Source of the DNA: Lentisphaerota bacterium
GTDB taxonomy: Bacteria > Verrucomicrobiota > Kiritimatiellia > UBA8416 > JAFGTH01
DNA length: 32,924 nucleotides
Assembly (NCBI GenBank): GCA_016934225.1
Contig: JAFGTH010000202.1
Span: 1-32,924 of the forward strand
Reading direction: 5' to 3'
In this document: positions 2,821-31,429 of the stretch, one piece after another
How positions within the stretch are numbered: position 1 is the stretch's first letter
How the letters are laid out: each line of letters opens with the position of its first letter
Position numbers and translations under genes: made by a program
The notes under the pieces: model-generated
What the model was told of the DNA's origin: nothing
The model's database searches: none
What the model saw: only the letters and a program-made list of their open reading frames with translations

Positions 2821-4014
2821 TCACCTTCGCCCGTGGCGAAATCGCTCCGGCGGCGCCATCTTCACAAGTTTGGGCTCGAACTTAGCCATGATTTCAACAA
2901 GATCCGCCTGCGCAGCCATAACGCGGTCAATATTCTTGTATGCCATCGGTATCTCATCCAAATCGGCCGAAAGCAATTCAACTCCCTGTTTTTCCAGATA
3001 TGCGTTCATATCCTGCCTTGAGAACTGCCGCTTTGCCGCTGCGCGACTCATCTTCCTGCCCGCCCCATGCGCCGCCGAATTCAGTGATTCATCATTCCCC
3101 TTACCCCGCACAACGTATGCCGGCGTGGCCATAGAACCGGGTATAACCCCAATCGCGCCCTTACCGGCCGGAGTTGCGCCCTTACGATGCACAATAATTT
3201 TCTGCCCGTCAGCGAGTGTCTCGCGCCACGCAAAGTTGTGATGATTCTCAATGCCCAGCAGCGCGCTAACATCCAAATGACGCGCAATGGCTTCATGGAT
3301 CAGTTCATGATTCGCTGCGGCATATTTGCCCATCAGCTCCATTGCCGCCCAATATTCCTGTCCTTCATGGCTCTGAAGATTCAACCATGCAAGATCGGCC
3401 ATTTCGTGCGGCAAATCCGGTCTCTTTCTTTTGGCCAACTTACTGTAATAGGTCGCTACTTCAGCGCCCGTCCCCCTGCTGCCGCCGTGCGTTAACAAGG
3501 CCATGTACAGACCGGTATCAAGACCGAGATCCCGAGACCGGACCGTCAATATCCCGAACTCGCAGAAATGGTTGCCGCTTCCGCTCGATCCCAATTGATG
3601 CCAGGCTTTGTCTTTAAATTGGGATGTAACCGGGCTGACCGACCAGTCTTCATCCATCACCTTGTGCTGTTTCCGCGGCTGAAAACCGTTGCCTATTCCG
3701 AAACATGTTTCTTTTTCCAAAGCATCAATCAGTTTGTCACGTTCTTTTGTAAGTGCGTCTATCGGCATATCGAACACGGTTAATTTCATGCGGCAGGCAA
3801 TATCCATTCCGACTGCGAAAGGAATAATCGCTTCCTGCGTTGCTAAAACTCCGCCAATAGGCATTCCATAGCCTGTATGCGCGTCCGGCATCAACGCGCC
3901 ACGGATTGCAACGGGCAGGCGACAGGCGTTCTTCATCTGTTCGATCGCGCCCGGATCAAGGTCCGTTCCCCATTGTCGCCAAGGCGCCATGTATGTGTAA
4001 TGATCCGATGTCAT
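2821..4014 (-). CDS. rtcB: RNA 3'-phosphate ligase RtcB
   Basis: The 397-aa product carries RtcB signatures: MPDAHTGYGMPIGGV, GSSGSGNHFCEFG, ENHHNFAW and GSMATPAYVVRG. Confidence 0.93.
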   Translation of the reverse strand: MTSDHYTYMAPWRQWGTDLDPGAIEQMKNACRLPVAIRGALMPDAHTGYGMPIGGVLATQEAIIPFAVGMDIACRMKLTVFDMPIDALTKERDKLIDALEKETCFGIGNGFQPRKQHKVMDEDWSVSPVTSQFKDKAWHQLGSSGSGNHFCEFGILTVRSRDLGLDTGLYMALLTHGGSRGTGAEVATYYSKLAKRKRPDLPHEMADLAWLNLQSHEGQEYWAAMELMGKYAAANHELIHEAIARHLDVSALLGIENHHNFAWRETLADGQKIIVHRKGATPAGKGAIGVIPGSMATPAYVVRGKGNDESLNSAAHGAGRKMSRAAAKRQFSRQDMNAYLEKQGVELLSADLDEIPMAYKNIDRVMAAQADLVEIMAKFEPKLVKMAPPERFRHGRR

Positions 4015-4197: not shown

Positions 4198-4213
4198 TGC
4201 CATGCTTTTGCCA
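4198..4213 (-). promoter_or_regulatory. candidate sigma-54 (-24/-12) promoter upstream of rtcB (weak)
   Basis: The minus strand reads TTGGCAAAAGCATGGCAG, with GG (4212-4211), 10 nt, then GC (4200-4199). Against TGGCAC-N5-TTGCA, the -24 box is good and the -12 box is TGGCA rather than TTGCA. It lies about 185 nt upstream of the rtcB ATG and 32 nt upstream of the lon ATG. Confidence 0.25.
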
Positions 4214-24415: not shown

Positions 24416-26520
24416 CGCTCTTGCTCCAATTTGCCGGCAAGAGTTATTCGAGCATCGGCGGCTATCGAATCCTCGCCCGGTTTGCCGGCAATGAAAGGAT
24501 TGATGTCCATCTCCAGAATTTCCGGGAAATCCGTGACCAGTTGACTTATTCTCTGCAACCCTGTCGCAACCGCATCAAAATCCACCCGCGCTTGTCCGCG
24601 CGCTCCTTTCAACAAGGCAAAAGACTTTGTGCTCTCCAGCATCTTCATGGCCTCGGCGTTGGTTATTGGCGCAATGTGAAACGCAACATCCTTCATCACT
24701 TCAACAAAGATTCCGCCCAGCCCGAACATGAGCATCGGCCCAAACTGAGGATCGCGTGTCATGCCGAGTATGATTTCCCTGCCCCGTTTGCACATCTGCT
24801 CCAAATATACACCGTTAATTCGCGCCTTCGGCATGCGTTCTTTAATTCGCATCGTCATAAGATCAAATGCGTCACGTACAGCGTCTTCCGAATCCAGATT
24901 CAGTTTAACGCCGCCAATGTCGGACTTATGAATAATGTCCGGAGATGCAATTTTCATCGCCACGGGCAAGCCGACTTTCAGCGCAATTTCTATCGCCTCA
25001 TCTGCCGTAGCCGCCAAGCCGCCCAACGGCACATTAAATCCGTACGCACTCAACACTTCTTTGGCATATGCTTCACCCATTTGAAATTGCTCGGTTCGAA
25101 TGTGCCTGTTGATGATCCTTCTTACGCGCCTCCTATTTACAAGGAACCGCGTAAGTATCCTTGGCGGTCGCCGCAACCATTCCGAATACTCGCTCATGGC
25201 CTTTAGAGCGGCAATTGCCCTTTCCGGAGACGGATAATCGGGCAAATTCTGAGACATGAGCGTGTCGCGACCCGTTGACACATCAAGCCCGCCCATAAAC
25301 GAAACCAGTATCGGCTTTTTGTTCCTCGCGCAACCCGCAATGGCTTGTGCGGTTTCCACAGGTTTTGTCATGGCCTGCGGGGTCAATATAACCACTATGG
25401 CATCCACCGAATCGTCGCTCTGCGCCGCCTCAACAGCCATGACATACCGCTCAGGATCGGCATCACCCAATACATCAATCGGATTGCCCACGCTTGCCGC
25501 GGACGGCAACTTGCTTTTGAGCGCAGACGCCGAAGCAGTGGCCAATGTGCATACTTTCATGCCCGAAAGTTCAACAGCATCGGCAGCCATAATTCCGGGA
25601 CCACCGGCATTTGTAATGATCGCCACGTTATTCCCCTTGGGCAACGGCTGCATCGCCAACGCCATGGCATAGTCGAACAACGACTCGAACGTATCCGCGC
25701 GTATGATGCCCGACCGACTAAACGCGGCGCCATAGGCCATATCAGCGCCCGCAAGACTGCCAGTATGCGATGAAGCCGCCTTGCCACCCGCCTGGGTAAC
25801 ACCCGACTTGAACACAACCACAGGTTTCTTAGAAGAAGCGTTCTCTGCAGCTTTCATGAATTCGTCGCCGGATCCGATGCTTTCCAGATAGCCCACAATG
25901 ACTTTCGTCTTGTCGTCTTCCGCAAGCGCATTCAGAAAATCCGTCTCGGACAAATCGGCCTTGTTGCCGACACTAACAAGCTTGGCCAAACCAAGATGCC
26001 GTGACGCAGCCCAGTCCAGTATCGCAGTACAAAGAGCGCCCGATTGGGACACTACAGAAATTCCGCCCTGTAAAGGCATGTGCTTGGCAAACGAAGCGTT
26101 CATCCGATGATGCGCGTTGATCAAACCCAGACAATTCGGACCAAGCAAACGCACTCCCTTTGACAGACACATTTGCGCTATCTCGCGCTCAAGCGCCATG
26201 CCCGCATCGCCGACTTCCTTGAACCCTGCGGTAATCACCGCTATCGCTCCGGCTCCAGCCGTAATGGATGCATCAATCGCATCTCTCACAGCCGCCGTCG
26301 GAATAGCAATGACCGCAAGGTCAATCTTTTTGCCATATGATTCGAGATCCGGGTAACACTTGAGCCCACACACTTCATCAGCTGAAGGATTCACGGGTAC
26401 GATACTCCCGCCAAACCCGCCGTCTTTCAAATTAGCCAATATTTCGTAACCCACCTTGCCCGGCGTTCGTGATGCGCCAATTACAGCTACAGTTTTGGGT
26501 TCCAGTAATGCCTCAAACAT
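24412..26520 (-). CDS. ADP-forming acetyl/acyl-CoA synthetase (fused alpha-beta, acetate--CoA ligase family)
   Basis: The 702-aa product has a CoA-binding N-terminus (TVAVIGASRTPGKVGYEI) and a phosphohistidine loop (AASSHTGSLAGAD). The C-terminal ATP-grasp part reads AKEVLSAYGFNVP...VAMKIASPDIIHKSDIGGVKLNL. Its stop overlaps the next ATG (ATGA at 24415-24412). Confidence 0.9.
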   Translation of the reverse strand: MFEALLEPKTVAVIGASRTPGKVGYEILANLKDGGFGGSIVPVNPSADEVCGLKCYPDLESYGKKIDLAVIAIPTAAVRDAIDASITAGAGAIAVITAGFKEVGDAGMALEREIAQMCLSKGVRLLGPNCLGLINAHHRMNASFAKHMPLQGGISVVSQSGALCTAILDWAASRHLGLAKLVSVGNKADLSETDFLNALAEDDKTKVIVGYLESIGSGDEFMKAAENASSKKPVVVFKSGVTQAGGKAASSHTGSLAGADMAYGAAFSRSGIIRADTFESLFDYAMALAMQPLPKGNNVAIITNAGGPGIMAADAVELSGMKVCTLATASASALKSKLPSAASVGNPIDVLGDADPERYVMAVEAAQSDDSVDAIVVILTPQAMTKPVETAQAIAGCARNKKPILVSFMGGLDVSTGRDTLMSQNLPDYPSPERAIAALKAMSEYSEWLRRPPRILTRFLVNRRRVRRIINRHIRTEQFQMGEAYAKEVLSAYGFNVPLGGLAATADEAIEIALKVGLPVAMKIASPDIIHKSDIGGVKLNLDSEDAVRDAFDLMTMRIKERMPKARINGVYLEQMCKRGREIILGMTRDPQFGPMLMFGLGGIFVEVMKDVAFHIAPITNAEAMKMLESTKSFALLKGARGQARVDFDAVATGLQRISQLVTDFPEILEMDINPFIAGKPGEDSIAADARITLAGKLEQER

Positions 26521-26576
26521 ATTTGACGTCTTTCTCTTGTCAATTCACCGGTTCAACAATCGTAAACAACATCTTC

Positions 26577-26593
26577 CGGCACACGTTTTGCCG
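26577..26593. promoter_or_regulatory. palindromic CGGCA-N7-TGCCG box with sigma-54-like GG-N10-GC spacing in both orientations
   Basis: The plus strand reads cGGCACacgttTTGCcg (GG 26578-79, GC 26590-91), a very good match to TGGCAC-N5-TTGC, but it points antisense into the activator gene. The minus strand reads cGGCAAaacgtGTGCcg and points at the acd operon, whose ATG (26520) lies 57 nt downstream of the box. Confidence 0.3.
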
Positions 26594-26619
26594 CAACCCC
26601 CAGCAGCAATCAACTATTG

Positions 26620-26648
26620 AATATATATCGTGCGGCATCTGCATGCAA
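26620..26648 (-). promoter_or_regulatory. candidate sigma-70 promoter for the acd operon
   Basis: The minus strand reads TTGCAT (26648-26643), a 17-nt spacer, then TATATT (26625-26620). It lies about 100 nt upstream of ATG 26520. Confidence 0.3.
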
Positions 26649-26670
26649 ATTCCAAAACCGGACATCATAA

Positions 26671-28299
26671 TCACCCCGATTTCTCGGCATCCGCTCGTCT
26701 CAATTTCCGCCACAGCGTTGCCGGACTGATTCCAAGGATTTTTGTCGCCGCAGTTTTGTTGCCTCCGACCGACTCCAGAACCGCTTGAATATGATTCTTT
26801 TCCAAATCGCTTAACGTTTGCGGTTTGTCTGTAGGGCCGCCACGCCACCGGGAAGCCATATTGACAACCGAACCGGGTAAATCTTCACGCTTGATCACAT
26901 GATCAGCGCACAAAATAGCCGCTCTTTCGATAACATTCTCCAATTCACGAACATTGCCCGGCCACGAATATGACAACAGAGGATCCAGGCACGATGCGTC
27001 CAGTTGAAGCTTGGGCATTTTTAATTTTCCCGCGACATTTTTCACAAACAAACGCGCCAACGGCAAAATGTCGTCAGTCCTGTCGCGCAACGGAGGCACT
27101 TCGATCTCTATCACGCCAAGCCGATAAAATAAATCCTCTCTGAATGTCCCGTTTTGAACCATATTTTTCAAATCTCTGTTCGTGGCGGCTATGACCCGAA
27201 TGTCCACTTTGCGCGTCTTGCTTTCGCCTACTCGCATAATCTCGTGCTCCTGCAATACGCGAAGAAGACGAAGTTGCATACTTTGCGAAATATCACCGAT
27301 CTCATCCAGGAAAATGGTCCCCTTTTGCGCCTGTTCAAAAAGGCCGACCCTGTCGTCCGTCGCCCCAGTGAACGACCCGCGTTTATGCCCGAACAATTCG
27401 CTTTCAAGAAGATTCTCCGGAAGCGCGCCGCAGTTCACTCCCACAAACGGACCGGCAGATCTTGCCGAAAGACCGTGGATATGCCTGGCCAATACCTCTT
27501 TCCCAACACCGCTTTCGCCTGTAATCAAAACGGATGCGTCATAACCCGCAACACGAATCGCCAGTTCCAACACTTTTCTGAATGCCTCGCTCTTGACCTC
27601 CACCATCCCCAGCGAAGCAATTTCCTCGCTCGCATGCATGGCCAATAAATTCTCCGTCGGCGTCTGTCGTTTAAGAACCTGCGTCAGATCCATAACCTTG
27701 CCGCGAATGTCGTCCGCGCGGAAATAGGGCAAATGCGGTCTTATCTCGTCACCCCATGAGGCCGCATCTTTTCCGGAAGCAATGCATGCTCTGTCGCCGG
27801 CCGCTCGACACTTCCGCTCAATGAAATATATTTCCGTGCCCATGCAGAAGGACGCGTATCCGCTTGCGTATCCTACCAGCATCCAACAAGCCGGTTCGTC
27901 GGAACGACCAAATTCCATCAGGTGCTCCTCAGCCTCGCCGGAATTGTGCCAGATTACCTCCATCTCAAATTTGCCGGACGCTTCATCCATTTTCAAAGAC
28001 TTCGTCACAACACGCGTTACCCCCTGCAACGCATGCATCCGCGGACCGGCTTTTATCCATTCTTTCGTGTTGCGCCATTGGAATATACGCTTCATCGCCG
28101 CCGCGTCGGCGTTCCCCCAGTAATACCCAAATCGCGTGAACATCCGCCTGGCTTCGTTCATTCCAACAGTCTGCACCAGATCATGCCGAAACTGTGCGAA
28201 AGCATGAAGCGAATGCAATACCAGCCGCCTGCCATGTAAATTCAAGGCTCCATCCTCAAAACTCACCAATTCCTCAAGTTTTAGCTCTTCCGCCTTCAT
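26671..28299 (-). CDS. sigma-54-dependent transcriptional activator, XylR/DmpR-like (XylR_N + V4R sensor, AAA+, Fis-type HTH)
   Basis: Walker A is [15 protein letters not shown], followed by [15 protein letters not shown] (a GAFTGA variant) and Walker B IFLDEIGD, then [10 protein letters not shown]. The C-terminal HTH is [22 protein letters not shown]. The N-terminal ~200 aa ([23 protein letters not shown]...[17 protein letters not shown]...[13 protein letters not shown]) fit the XylR_N/V4R small-molecule-sensing module. Confidence 0.9.
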
Positions 28300-28327
28300 A
28301 TCAATTTATGCCAATTTATGCGTTATC

Positions 28328-28346
28328 TTATTTCATTCTGAAATAA
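28328..28346. promoter_or_regulatory. candidate upstream activator sequence: palindrome TTATTTCA-TTC-TGAAATAA
   Basis: The palindrome has perfect 8-bp arms and a 3-nt spacer. It lies about 150 bp upstream of the sigma-54 promoter at 28487. A third TGAAATA half-site occurs at 28359-28365, and an AT-rich tract with an IHF-like ATCAAgtttTT lies between the palindrome and the promoter. Confidence 0.35.
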
Positions 28347-28486
28347 TGTATTGCAGTATGAAATATATAGTATAAACAATCAAGTTTTTTCCATCTGAGG
28401 CTGTCACGGTGAGTATAAGCATAAACGGCCCGTAAATATTGCCTTCTTGCACAATTCCTGAGGATGCATTTGCCCCGTACAAGTGT

Positions 28487-28502
28487 TGGCACGACAACTG
28501 CA
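28487..28502 (+). promoter_or_regulatory. sigma-54 (-24/-12) promoter of the M20 hydrolase / ackA' operon
   Basis: TGGCACGacaaCTGCA matches the consensus TGGCACG-N4-TTGCW with one mismatch. GG is at 28488-89 and GC at 28500-01, with exact 10-nt spacing. It lies 54 nt upstream of ATG 28556 and is divergent from a sigma-54 activator gene. Confidence 0.72.
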
Positions 28503-28555
28503 ATATGAGAATCCGGAAACACACAGCTATAACAACACAGGAAAGAGAGGCTCAT

Positions 28556-29785
28556 ATGTTTGATCTTATGCGACGCAAGGCCAAATTGCTTGAGAAGGAT
28601 GTTGTCGAGTTCGCCGCAAGACTGGTGCGCACTCCCAGTGTTACAACTCACGAAGCTGATGTTGCGGCACTCGTGGAAACGACAATGCGGAATATCGGGT
28701 ATGAGAACGTTTTCCGCGACGATGCCGGAAACGTGGTCAGTGTCATACCGGGACGCCGGAATGCTCCAACCGTTCTGCTGTTGTCTCATATGGATACTGT
28801 CGCACCCGATGAAAAGAACAATTGGACGCATCCGCCTTTTGACGGCGTTATTGAAAACGGGCGTTTGCACGGTGTCGGATCGTCGGATTGCAAATCAGGG
28901 CTGGCTGCCCAAATCTTTGCGGGCGCCTTGCTTAAGCGAACCCTGCTTCCACTTGAGGGCAACATGATAGTCGCCGCCACCGTTTCGGAAGAAAACGGCG
29001 GCAGTCCCGGCGCGCGAGCTCTCATGGAAAACACACTTCCGGCCATGCAAATGAAACCTGATTTTGCCGTTCTGGGTGAGCCGACAGGCCTCGCCCTGTA
29101 TCACGGCCATGACGGCTGGGCCCAATTCGACATATTGGTGTACGGAGCAAATCAGTTCCAGGTTGACGACGCTGCTCGCGCCGTCGAAACCCATCTTTCA
29201 GAACGCAGCCGCTATTCGCGACAAAACCGATACAGTGATCAAACTATCGTAGCCAGACGTCCGACACAACTGGTGGAGGGATTCCACCGCGGCACAATAC
29301 AACTCACCAGGCGCATGAATGAGCGTGAAGACTACCGCGATGTTGCCTCGCAGATACATCATAACGCCGCTCTGGTCGCAGAATCGGTGGGTAGCGCCGA
29401 CGTATCGGTATCCATTCCACAAACCAGACAACGCCTCTATACCAACAGAACCGTCGTGACAAAGAACATTATCGAGGCATGGTCCACAGATCCGTTCAAC
29501 GCTGTAATGGAACGCCCGCGCCAGGCCCTGATGGCCGCGGGATGCAAAGCGCAGGCGGGCAAATGGTCCCTACCGCGCTGCGGAATGGCAACGGCGGGCG
29601 GATTGCTGCTCAAGACCTTCGGCGTGCCCACGATAGGGTACGGACCCGGCAACGAGGAAACCGCGCATTCCGCCAATGAATCGGTGGAAACAACCATGAT
29701 CGAGCAAGCCATGTTCGGCACGGCTGTCATCGTCCACAGTCTTGTCGGAATCCCCGTGTGCGGATGGACGGCCGACGAAATTTGA
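28556..29785 (+). CDS. M20-family metallohydrolase (ArgE/DapE/aminoacylase/CPG2-like)
   Basis: ATG 28556 follows GGAAAGAGAGG. Metal-ligand motifs are LLLSHMDTV, GVGSSDCKSG, VSEENGG and ETAHSANESV. The longer ORF from 28439 would include the sigma-54 promoter and was rejected. Confidence 0.85.
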   Translation: MFDLMRRKAKLLEKDVVEFAARLVRTPSVTTHEADVAALVETTMRNIGYENVFRDDAGNVVSVIPGRRNAPTVLLLSHMDTVAPDEKNNWTHPPFDGVIENGRLHGVGSSDCKSGLAAQIFAGALLKRTLLPLEGNMIVAATVSEENGGSPGARALMENTLPAMQMKPDFAVLGEPTGLALYHGHDGWAQFDILVYGANQFQVDDAARAVETHLSERSRYSRQNRYSDQTIVARRPTQLVEGFHRGTIQLTRRMNEREDYRDVASQIHHNAALVAESVGSADVSVSIPQTRQRLYTNRTVVTKNIIEAWSTDPFNAVMERPRQALMAAGCKAQAGKWSLPRCGMATAGGLLLKTFGVPTIGYGPGNEETAHSANESVETTMIEQAMFGTAVIVHSLVGIPVCGWTADEI

Positions 29786-29811
29786 CGCTATTGAGGAGAA
29801 TATACAGCGCA

Positions 29812-30336
29812 ATGAATATACTTGTCTTTAATTGCGGAAGTTCGTCTCTGAAATTTCGCCTTATCGCCATGCCTGACGAGAAAGAGTTGATCAGCGGTGA
29901 GGCACAGCGCATAGGCCCGCCCACCGCTCTGCCGTCGAAAATAATCTACAGAGTCCGCGACGAGAAATTCGCCACGGAAATACAAATGGCGGATCACGAA
30001 GCCGCATTGCGGCAAATAATGACCATTTTAACGGGAATACCCGATTGTTCGCCTGATCTTGTCGCTCATCGTCTCGTTCACGGCGGTTCGCGAATCACTG
30101 CGACGTCTCCGGTCACAAGCGCCGTGGCTGAAGATTTGCGGATGGTGAGCAGTCTCGCACCTCTGCATAATCCGCCGGCAATTGCGGCGCTGGAGGCATG
30201 CCGCAAACACTTCCCGCATTTGTCTCAAGTCGTCGTGTCCGATACCGCATACCACAACACCATACCGGAACATGCGGCAATATATGCCTTGCCGAAAGAT
30301 TTGCGCACGCAAACAGGCATACGGAAATATGGATTT
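29812..30336 (+). pseudogene. ackA: acetate/propionate-kinase family gene, 5' fragment only (about 175 of ~400 codons)
   Basis: GAGGAG lies 13 nt upstream of the start. The product reads MNILVFNCGSSSLKFRL...HRLVHGG...LAPLHNPP...VVVSDTAYHNTIP...GIRKYGF. Homology stops where the family continues HGTSH. The frame then reads into the inverted repeat of the mobile element and terminates at 30489. Confidence 0.8.
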
Positions 30337-30342
30337 GTATTC

Positions 30343-30371
30343 CAGGGTCAGACCTTGGTTATTGACTTTAG
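30343..30371 (+). repeat. left 29-bp inverted repeat of the element
   Basis: This is an exact reverse-complement match to 31401-31429. It contains the small palindrome GGTC-A-GACC. It overlaps the last 8 codons of the transposase gene. Confidence 0.9.
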
Positions 30372-31376
30372 TTTTAATATTCTTGCTTTCAGGCGATTTA
30401 TACGTTTCGTTAATGTCTTGTCTTCTTCCATTTGCCTTTTAAACCGCTGCCGTAGTTTGGACACCGATGAATCGTTGGTATACCCATAATATTGCCCTAC
30501 GCATCTCTGGCTTCTAGCACTTATTTGACACGATAAATAAACCGCTGTTCTTTTGGCGAGCGACGCTTTGTGACCGTGCTCGTGAAGAACTTCAGGCTTT
30601 ACACCAAATTCTTCAGCAACCGTTTCTTCTATATCTCCCAACTCTGCTATTCGCTCTCTTGGCCGATATATGTCTCCGCCACCGCATGCTTTCGCTAAAT
30701 GCATTTCCTTAAGATCATTTTCAGATTCTTCAATAAATTTATCACCCCCTATCGCATACCGGCTTACTTTTAGCGCTTTCTTGAATTCTTCATCATCTTT
30801 AGCTGTCATCTCCTCCAAATATCGCTTATATGCAGCAGCGTTACCTTTTTTCGTTTTAAGCCCCATTTGATATAACCAGCGATAATCTATTATCTCTTCC
30901 TCTTTTGTTTTATCGATGTAGCCCGGGTAACTGCTCCATCTAAATTGGTTCAAATACCTTATCCGTTCAGAGAAAAGCTCGCTCTGCATCCTACGTGTTT
31001 TAACAGGATTTAGATGTATATATCTCGTCAGCCGAATTATATAATCGTCACCAGCGACAAGCTTAGCTCCATATCTCCCCTGAAAACAGTGCCCTGGTTT
31101 ACCATGTTTGTACCTGAAGTACATGCTATAGGCTGTATTGAGCCTTTGCATGAATCGTTTTACGTTGCCCAGCGGGGTTTCAAGCAGAAGGTGGTAGTGG
31201 TTAGGCATTAATACATAAGCATAAAGAATCACTTCGTCTTTTTCAAGAGCGTCTTTAAGCTGATTAAGAAATCTCTGGTAATCACAATCCTCTATGAATA
31301 TCTGCCGCCGACCATTTCCTCTGGAGGTTATATGATACTTCGCCCCTGAATACGTTACTCTCCATGGCCTTGTCAT
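30348..31376 (-). CDS. Y1 (HUH) tyrosine transposase, RayT/IS200-like, with C-terminal HTH-like extension
   Basis: The 342-aa product shows YHITSRGNGRRQIF and the HUH motif in YAYVLMPNHYHLLLETP. The catalytic-Tyr helix is RLTRYIHLNPV. The C-terminal ~90 aa (LAKRTAVYLSCQISARSQRCVGQYYGYTNDSSVSKLRQRF) resemble a DnaA-C-terminal-type HTH. Confidence 0.88.
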   Translation of the reverse strand: MTRPWRVTYSGAKYHITSRGNGRRQIFIEDCDYQRFLNQLKDALEKDEVILYAYVLMPNHYHLLLETPLGNVKRFMQRLNTAYSMYFRYKHGKPGHCFQGRYGAKLVAGDDYIIRLTRYIHLNPVKTRRMQSELFSERIRYLNQFRWSSYPGYIDKTKEEEIIDYRWLYQMGLKTKKGNAAAYKRYLEEMTAKDDEEFKKALKVSRYAIGGDKFIEESENDLKEMHLAKACGGGDIYRPRERIAELGDIEETVAEEFGVKPEVLHEHGHKASLAKRTAVYLSCQISARSQRCVGQYYGYTNDSSVSKLRQRFKRQMEEDKTLTKRINRLKARILKLKSITKV

Positions 31377-31400
31377 ATAAATAACATATCATCATTCACC

Positions 31401-31429
31401 CTAAAGTCAATAACCAAGGTCTGACCCTG
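31401..31429 (-). repeat. right 29-bp inverted repeat of the element
   Basis: ctaaagtcaataaccaaggtctgaccctg is an exact reverse complement of 30343-30371. It lies 24 nt upstream of the transposase ATG and 7 nt from the stop codon of the next gene. Confidence 0.9.

Follow-up and report, generated by a model that had tools for sequence, protein, structure and literature searches.

A conserved sigma-54 activator–M20 hydrolase–acetate kinase module and its predicted ligand-responsive control region in a Lentisphaerota contig

The sequence analyzed here, in the following called the window, is the whole 32.9-kb contig JAFGTH010000202.1 (32,924 nt) of a Lentisphaerota bacterium, and its source is a sediment metagenome. 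It contains a gene for a sigma-54 activator (an enhancer-binding protein of bacteria, bEBP) of the XylR/DmpR type and, divergently oriented, a gene for an M20 metallohydrolase. The two genes are separated by a spacer of 256 bp (28300-28555). An initial annotation of the window, which was made from the letters alone, had proposed that the activator senses a small ligand and acts from an upstream palindromic site on a -24/-12 promoter of the M20 gene. Comparison with related loci supported this proposal and revealed a conserved module of sigma-54 activator, predicted promoter, predicted binding sites, M20 enzyme and acetate kinases. A ligand-responsive, DmpR-like sigma-54 switch is regarded as the likely regulatory core of this module. 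The features of the locus are compiled in Table 1.

Table 1. Genes and predicted regulatory elements at the activator/M20 locus, in window coordinates
Feature	Position	Strand	Basis
Sigma-54 activator (bEBP), XylR/DmpR type, 542 aa	26671..28299	-	Pfam, DmpR match, conserved sensor residues
10-bp tandem duplication, caatttatgc x2	28302..28321		Located between activator ATG and site 1
Predicted activator-binding site 1, TATTTCATTCTGAAATA, perfect TTTCA-N3-TGAAA, core 28331-28343	28329..28345		Family consensus
Predicted activator-binding site 2, TATTGCAGTATGAAATA, core TTGCAgtaTGAAA 28351-28363, one mismatch	28349..28365		Tandem-pair conservation
Predicted sigma-70 promoter of activator gene, TTGATT-17-CATACT	28355..28383	-	Aligned with relatives
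Predicted sigma-54 promoter, TGGCACGacaaCTGCA (also TGGCACGACAACTGCA)	28487..28502	+	Consensus match and conservation in relatives
Putative ribosome-binding site of M20, GGAAAGAGAGG	28540..28550	+	Sequence reading; 5 nt before ATG 28556
M20 metallohydrolase, DapE/ArgE/LysK type, 409 aa, intact	28556..29785	+	Pfam, ligand alignment, AlphaFold/Foldseek
Truncated acetate kinase (ackA'), codons 1-175 of ~405	29812..30336	+	Remnant of conserved second operon gene
Y1 (IS200-like) transposase element ending the operon	30343..31429	-	Pfam Y1_Tnp and DnaA_C-like HTH

The activator, the M20 enzyme and the conserved module

The start codon of the activator gene is read as CAT at 28297-99 on the plus strand. 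The Pfam domains XylR_N (86 bits), V4R (35 bits), Sigma54_activat (PF00158, 238 bits) and HTH_8 (52 bits) were all found with scores above their cut-offs, which bears out the XylR/V4R-type architecture of the initial annotation, and AAA_lid_14 was found in addition. The AAA+ domain contains the Walker A motif, the sigma-54-contacting loop GSFTGA and the Walker B motif FLDEIG, and the HTH_8 domain forms a helix-turn-helix (HTH) of the Fis type at the C-terminus. Among solved structures, the phenol sensor DmpR (PDB 6IY8) gave the best match, with 358 bits over residues 16-464. The residues His100, Trp128, Tyr155, Tyr159 and Phe170 have been named as pocket residues of DmpR (PMC7264223). Among 60 orthologues of the activator, the zinc ligands C138, E161, C164 and C172 are invariant, W117 (equivalent to Trp128 of DmpR) is present in 98 % and H89 (equivalent to His100) in 77 %, with Gln or Leu in the rest. 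The equivalents of Tyr155, Tyr159 and Phe170 are kept as well. The AAA+ sigma-54 domain with its motifs, the C-terminal HTH together with putative cognate sites, and the -24/-12 element at the target identify the protein as a bEBP, and the N-terminal XylR_N and V4R domains with the structural zinc site place it in the XylR/DmpR subfamily. Its score with the NCBIfam model MobR (NF041906) was 413 bits, far below the cut-off of 999 bits, and the activator is thus not an orthologue of MobR, but represents a distinct orthologous group within the subfamily.

The M20 enzyme was recognized by the Pfam family Peptidase_M20 (PF01546) with 92 bits. Alignment to the structures of DapE and ArgE assigned H78, D111, E145, E175 and H371 as metal ligands and E144 as the catalytic base. 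The AlphaFold model had a pLDDT of 91, and its top Foldseek matches were DapE, ArgE and LysK. The protein stayed below all NCBIfam equivalog cut-offs, e.g., those of YgeY (PRK13004, 195 versus 321 bits) and DapE-ArgE (TIGR01910, 137 versus 218 bits), and therefore it belongs to a separate, unnamed subfamily.

A scan with one genome per species yielded 80 loci with M20 orthologues of 43–54 % identity. An activator orthologue (52–66 % identity) lies divergently upstream of the M20 gene in 74 of them, and thus the gene pair, for which the initial annotation had given correct coordinates, is widely conserved. The closest protein relatives share 54 % identity with the M20 enzyme and 68 % with the activator. 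The hosts belong to more than 10 phyla, mostly of the Planctomycetota–Verrucomicrobiota group, and are mainly uncultured, with few cultured species. Planctomycetota, Verrucomicrobiota, Lentisphaerota and Kiritimatiellales carry the module, including the cultured Pontiella sulfatireligans F21, and further carriers were found in Omnitrophota, Sumerlaeota, Spirochaetota, Bacteroidota, Fibrobacterota, Gemmatimonadales, Myxococcota and others. Sigma-54 regulons have been reported in Planctomycetota and Verrucomicrobiota (PMC12316311). The searchable literature yielded no published description of the module; what is new is the group of orthologues together with its hosts, target operon and operator consensus.

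Clustering of all open reading frames of the related loci revealed only three recurrent families, i.e., the activator, the M20 enzyme and an acetate kinase with 127 copies across 75 loci. Linkage of an acetate kinase homologue was seen for 78 of 82 loci, mostly immediately 3' of the M20 gene, and the canonical gene order is the divergent activator gene followed, on the other strand, by M20, ack1 and ack2. The ack1 proteins of the relatives pass the acetate/propionate kinase model TIGR00016 at 358–381 bits and keep N7, S10, S12, K14, R91, H123, D148, H180, R241 and E384. In most relatives (L003-L082, e.g., L064:7149-8234), a shorter paralogue, ack2, follows directly 3' of ack1 (122–150 bits). 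It is devoid of the N-terminal phosphate loop (NxGSSS) and of the C-terminal adenosine motif (GIGEN-type), D148 is replaced by E, and N211 is lost. By its sequence, ack2 looks like a conserved pseudo-kinase or a repurposed subunit. Judged from these loci, the true operon is composed of the genes for the M20 enzyme, an acetate kinase and a degenerate acetate kinase paralogue.

The cassette was found to be rearranged in five loci. In L001 and L005, which represent the closest relative, and in L024, L028 and L040, the kinase genes lie beside or downstream of the activator gene and not after the M20 gene; in L001, both of them sit behind an Rce1-like gene. The linkage of the kinase genes survives these rearrangements, which argues for a functional coupling. 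In one Myxococcales locus, the kinase genes are directly followed by another sigma-54 activator gene (L081:5498-6433), which encodes a more distantly related paralogue (47 % identity in the AAA+ and HTH portion).

No recurring Pfam family was detected among 77 neighbor genes in the flanks of the module, and the flanks are unrelated between genomes. Therefore, activator, M20, ack1 and ack2 behave as an autonomous cassette, and the genomic context offers no hint to the substrate.

The control region between the divergent genes

The spacers between the activator and M20 genes were compared for all loci in which the two genes are not more than 700 bp apart, which yielded a set of 75 spacers with a median length of about 190 bp. 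In the window, the predicted sigma-54 promoter matches the consensus at 10 of 11 positions (TGGCACG-N4-CTGCA), with the -24 GG at 28488-89 and the -12 GC at 28500-01, 53 nt before the ATG of the M20 gene. On the M20 strand, 58 of the 75 spacers contain an element that agrees with the consensus at 9 or more of 11 positions; on the opposite strand no spacer does, and of the shuffled sequences 1.3 % do. The elements start 38–110 nt, mostly 57–82 nt, before the M20 start codon, and the logo of the relatives' GG-N10-GC element reads TGGCACG-N4-TTGC. For the window as a whole, 1.5 matches with not more than one mismatch were expected and one was observed, whereas the expectation for this spacer and strand is about 0.006. 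The match in the window alone is thus weak evidence, and the conservation in the relatives, which is confined to the M20 strand, is decisive. The near-consensus promoter of the initial annotation was therefore confirmed in its position, and transcription of the M20 gene is predicted to start near 28512. The region 26400-30400 had no match in Rfam, and thus neither a riboswitch nor a leader RNA is indicated.

When the spacers were anchored on the -24/-12 element, two tandem copies of the palindrome tATTTCAtwATGAAATa, with the core TTTCA-N3-TGAAA, were exposed upstream of it. A tandem pair with a distance of 20–22 bp was found in 60 of the 75 spacers, compared to 0.07 % of the shuffles, and 44 pairs are spaced by exactly 21 bp, i.e., two helical turns. 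The distance from site 2 to the T of the -24 element is 89–93 bp in 34 of 53 loci.

In the window, the initial annotation had noted a palindrome, TTATTTCA-TTC-TGAAATAA (= TTATTTCAttcTGAAATAA), at 28328-28346, and an additional half-site, TGAAATA, at 28359-65. The coordinates of both are correct, but the TGAAATA motif turned out to be the right arm of a second full palindrome rather than a half-site. The two sites are spaced by 20 bp and thus lie on the same face of the DNA, and both 17-mers were also recovered independently by a repeat search. They are the only intergenic sites of this type in the whole window, although the number of palindrome cores with not more than one mismatch, three versus 2.2 expected, is unremarkable. 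As for the promoter, the case is thus carried by position and conservation. Binding of the activator to this tandem pair is predicted from the consensus of the family.

Site 1 is 31 nt away from the activator ATG, compared to 7–11 nt in most relatives. The interval includes the tandem duplication caatttatgc x2, which the initial annotation had noted as well. No other duplication of this kind occurs in the window (0.045 expected), and none of the 74 related spacers shares it; the repeat is therefore real, yet lineage-specific and not a conserved element, and it probably arose by slippage. A perfect complementarity of 9 nt (TATTGCAGT / ACTGCAATA) was observed between the left arm of site 2 (28349-28357) and the -12 region (28497-28505). 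It was judged to be probably coincidental because TTGCA is present in both motifs.

The spacer has an A+T content of 78 % between 28300 and 28390 and of 52 % between 28391 and 28486. The AT-rich tract had been annotated as IHF-like, and AATCAAgtttTTT (28377-89) is one mismatch away from WATCAANNNNTTR. This candidate was rejected. In the relatives, the aligned hexamer is TGTCAA, which corresponds to TTGACA on the activator strand, and a TTGACA hexamer with not more than one mismatch occurs 16–18 nt upstream of a CATAAT-type hexamer in the center of site 2 in 28 of 60 loci, with a sharp peak at 17 nt. The counterparts in the window are a -35 hexamer TTGATT (28383-28378, minus strand) and, after a spacer of 17 nt, a -10 hexamer CATACT (28360-28355, minus strand) within site 2. 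The AT-rich tract is thus better explained by a sigma-70 promoter than by an IHF site. TTGACA-N17-CATAAT is probably the sigma-70 promoter from which the activator gene is transcribed, and the activator's own operator overlaps it. The position of the -10 hexamer inside site 2 predicts that the activator represses its own gene, which we consider to be moderately probable.

Truncation of the operon, adjacent genes and alternative readings

In the window, the operon is incomplete. The ackA' gene starts after a GAGGAG ribosome-binding site, its homology to full-length ack1 ends at GIRKYGF, 6 nt before the inverted repeat of the Y1 element, and its score with TIGR00016 is 140 bits at a cut-off of 293 bits. 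A gene for ack2 is absent from the window. The source run contains a unitig that covers 28283-30372 and thus crosses the junction of ackA' and the element, showing that the junction is real DNA. The unitigs at the ends of the element have a depth of 8–15, compared to about 6 in the flanks, and they break at the inverted repeats. This indicates that the element is present in multiple copies, and consequently the path of the contig past it may be a choice of the assembler. The lost half of the kinase could lie elsewhere if the contig was mis-joined across the element.

Several observations weigh against the proposed switch. In this genome, the operon is truncated, with ackA cut at codon 175 and the second paralogue missing. 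Site 2 is 136 bp away from the -24 element, compared to about 91 bp in the relatives, in which 89–93 bp are tightly kept, and site 1 is 31 nt instead of about 9 nt away from the activator ATG, with about 21 bp extra that include the 10-bp duplication. Degeneracy is seen in site 2 and in the sigma-70 hexamers, which are weak, with 4 of 6 matches each. In the relatives, the stretch from the binding sites to the promoter contains no conserved IHF-like consensus. Reads of the window locus were not found in three metatranscriptomes of the same study, and the RNA runs belonging to the Pontiella sulfatireligans genome study did not cover the locus of that species. Finally, the proposals for substrate and effector are guesses.

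The truncation and the atypical spacer indicate that the circuit may be decaying here. The elements would then be genuine in the family, but the loss of the kinase would have removed selection in this genome, the spacer would have drifted, and a non-functional remnant would be left. We regard this explanation as unlikely. The reading frames of the activator and the M20 enzyme are full length and keep all residues that are invariant in the family, the -24/-12 element retains 10 of 11 matches, and site 1 is perfect. In addition, other relatives also have longer spacers (102–226 bp), and the kinase genes could exist elsewhere in the genome if the multi-copy element caused a mis-join.

The initial annotation had also suggested that the whole block of 21.4-30.3 kb might be one acyl-metabolism regulon, which would place the ACD, CoA-transferase::GNAT and deacetylase operon downstream of the activator gene under the control of the activator. 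The ACD operon is indeed encoded on the same strand, it starts 150 bp after the activator gene, and all the products have to do with acetate or acyl groups. Between the activator gene and the ACD operon, nothing resembling a terminator was detected, and thus read-through is possible. However, homologues of the three genes (ACD, CoA-transferase::GNAT, HDAC) are absent from all 80 related loci, and the surroundings of the module show no relationship from one genome to the next. Neither a TTTCA-N3-TGAAA site nor a -24/-12 element on its own strand was detected upstream of the ACD gene, where the operon's own sigma-70-like hexamers are present. Control of the entire block is therefore considered very improbable. 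Among the flanking acyl genes that had been emphasized, the acetate kinase gene downstream of M20 has turned out to be an operon member, whereas the other three are linked to the module nowhere else.

A palindrome, CGGCA-N7-TGCCG, is located at 26577-26593 between the activator stop codon and the ACD start codon and has a weak match to the -24/-12 consensus on the plus strand. It was the only candidate for a sigma-54 promoter of the ACD operon and was rejected, as its better match is on the wrong strand. Alternatively, it could form a small hairpin on the minus strand.

The possibility that the promoter match and the palindromes arose by chance in an AT-rich spacer, with M20 transcribed from a sigma-70 promoter and the activator regulating something else, would fit the numbers expected for the window alone, but it is contradicted by the position- and strand-specific conservation over 75 spacers, far above the shuffled and reverse-strand controls, and is practically negligible.

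Elsewhere in the window, the sequence TGGCAAaagcaTGGCA with GG-N10-GC spacing was observed at 4198-4213 on the minus strand, about 185 nt upstream of the RtcB RNA ligase gene rtcB (2821-4014, minus strand). In E. coli, rtcBA is sigma-54-dependent. An RtcR-like activator was not seen in the window.

Proposed mechanism and comparison with known systems

Based on these results, we propose the following mechanism. The activator, a DmpR-like one-component regulator, would bind as two dimers to the tandem palindromes at 28331-43 and 28351-63. Its zinc-containing sensor with the phenol-pocket-like cavity would bind a small hydroxylated or aromatic-type effector, and the dimers would then join to form the active AAA+ oligomer, which would loop to the -24/-12 promoter at 28487-28502 and induce the formation of the open complex. 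Transcription would then proceed from about 28512 into the M20 gene and, in intact operons, onward into the genes for the acetate kinase and its degenerate paralogue. Occupation of both sites, which overlap the predicted sigma-70 promoter of the activator gene, would result in self-repression. The M20 enzyme might hydrolyze an N-acyl, probably an N-acetyl, amine or amino acid, and the kinase might handle the freed short-chain acid. This physiology of deacylation and acid phosphorylation is proposed only tentatively. As the kinase part has been broken by the transposable element, only the M20 gene would be left under control in this genome.

It is also conceivable, though rather unlikely, that the four-gene cassette represents a so far undescribed pathway and is passed on as one unit between anaerobes of more than 10 phyla. 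In one version, N-acetylated aromatic amines or amino acids may be sensed and cleaved, and the acetate may be captured as acetyl phosphate. In a more radical version, the cassette may perform an ATP-driven amide synthesis, in which the acyl phosphate produced by the kinase pair is condensed with an amine by the M20 enzyme.

The conserved switch makes a cis-regulatory layout readable by comparison alone, including the operator consensus, the spacing, the promoter and a likely autoregulatory promoter. It defines a compact regulon that can be tested in Pontiella isolates, and the sensor might be reusable as a biosensor part with a defined operator. It also offers a handle on what an unnamed M20 subfamily uses as its substrate and on the role of the degenerate acetate kinase paralogue. 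With respect to this contig, the circuit appears to be real, the operon is truncated, and the module is unrelated to the adjacent acetylation operon.

The M20 enzyme resembles the ArgE/DapE/LysK/YgeY branch in its predicted two-part fold of catalytic and lid domains, and it has an identical set of di-metal ligands and the catalytic Glu. However, the identity to solved members of this branch is only 18–22 %, and the family has specific motifs, D-C-K-G-G-L-A-A-Q and, near the C-terminus, G-I-P-V-C-G-W-T. The M20 gene is always linked to acetate kinase genes and not to arginine, lysine or purine genes.

With the phenol-responsive activators DmpR, MopR and PoxR (PDB 6IY8, 5KBE and 5FRU), the activator shares the order of domains, i.e., the XylR_N-V4R sensor, the B-linker, the AAA+ domain and HTH_8, as well as the Cys/Glu/Cys/Cys zinc site. 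Also retained are the His and Trp residues by which the phenol hydroxyl group is held, and the Tyr/Tyr/Phe wall of the pocket. The control logic of upstream palindromes and a -24/-12 promoter appears to be the same, here deduced from sequence comparison. Aromatic compounds such as phenols, toluene and xylenes serve as effectors in the XylR/DmpR subfamily. To our knowledge, XylR/DmpR-type regulators have been studied almost solely as sensors of aromatic pollutants in aerobic Pseudomonadota. The present group of orthologues (53–68 % identity), with its conserved phenol-type pocket, was found in mostly uncultured anaerobes. Whereas DmpR, MopR and PoxR occur in aerobic Pseudomonadota and control oxygenase pathways for aromatic compounds, the hosts here are mostly anaerobic bacteria of the Planctomycetota–Verrucomicrobiota group, Omnitrophota and Spirochaetota, and the predicted target is an M20 hydrolase together with acetate kinases. 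The operator TTTCA-N3-TGAAA is unlike what we take to be the XylR/DmpR-type binding sequence, and, also unlike the sites of these regulators, the sites here are 21 bp apart and abut the start codon of the regulator gene.

The closest parallel for the arrangement of the control region is the divergent Pr/Ps region of the TOL plasmid, for which Bertoni, Marques and de Lorenzo reportedly described the autoregulation of XylR in 1998. There, the sites for the divergent sigma-54 promoter are said to overlap the sigma-70 promoter of the regulator gene, so that activation is combined with self-repression, and the region described here would follow the same principle. In contrast to Pr/Ps, the overlap is deduced here from the conserved TTGACA-N17-CATAAT hexamers only, and, whereas the target of XylR at Ps is reportedly the regulator gene xylS, the predicted target in the present module is an operon of catabolic type.

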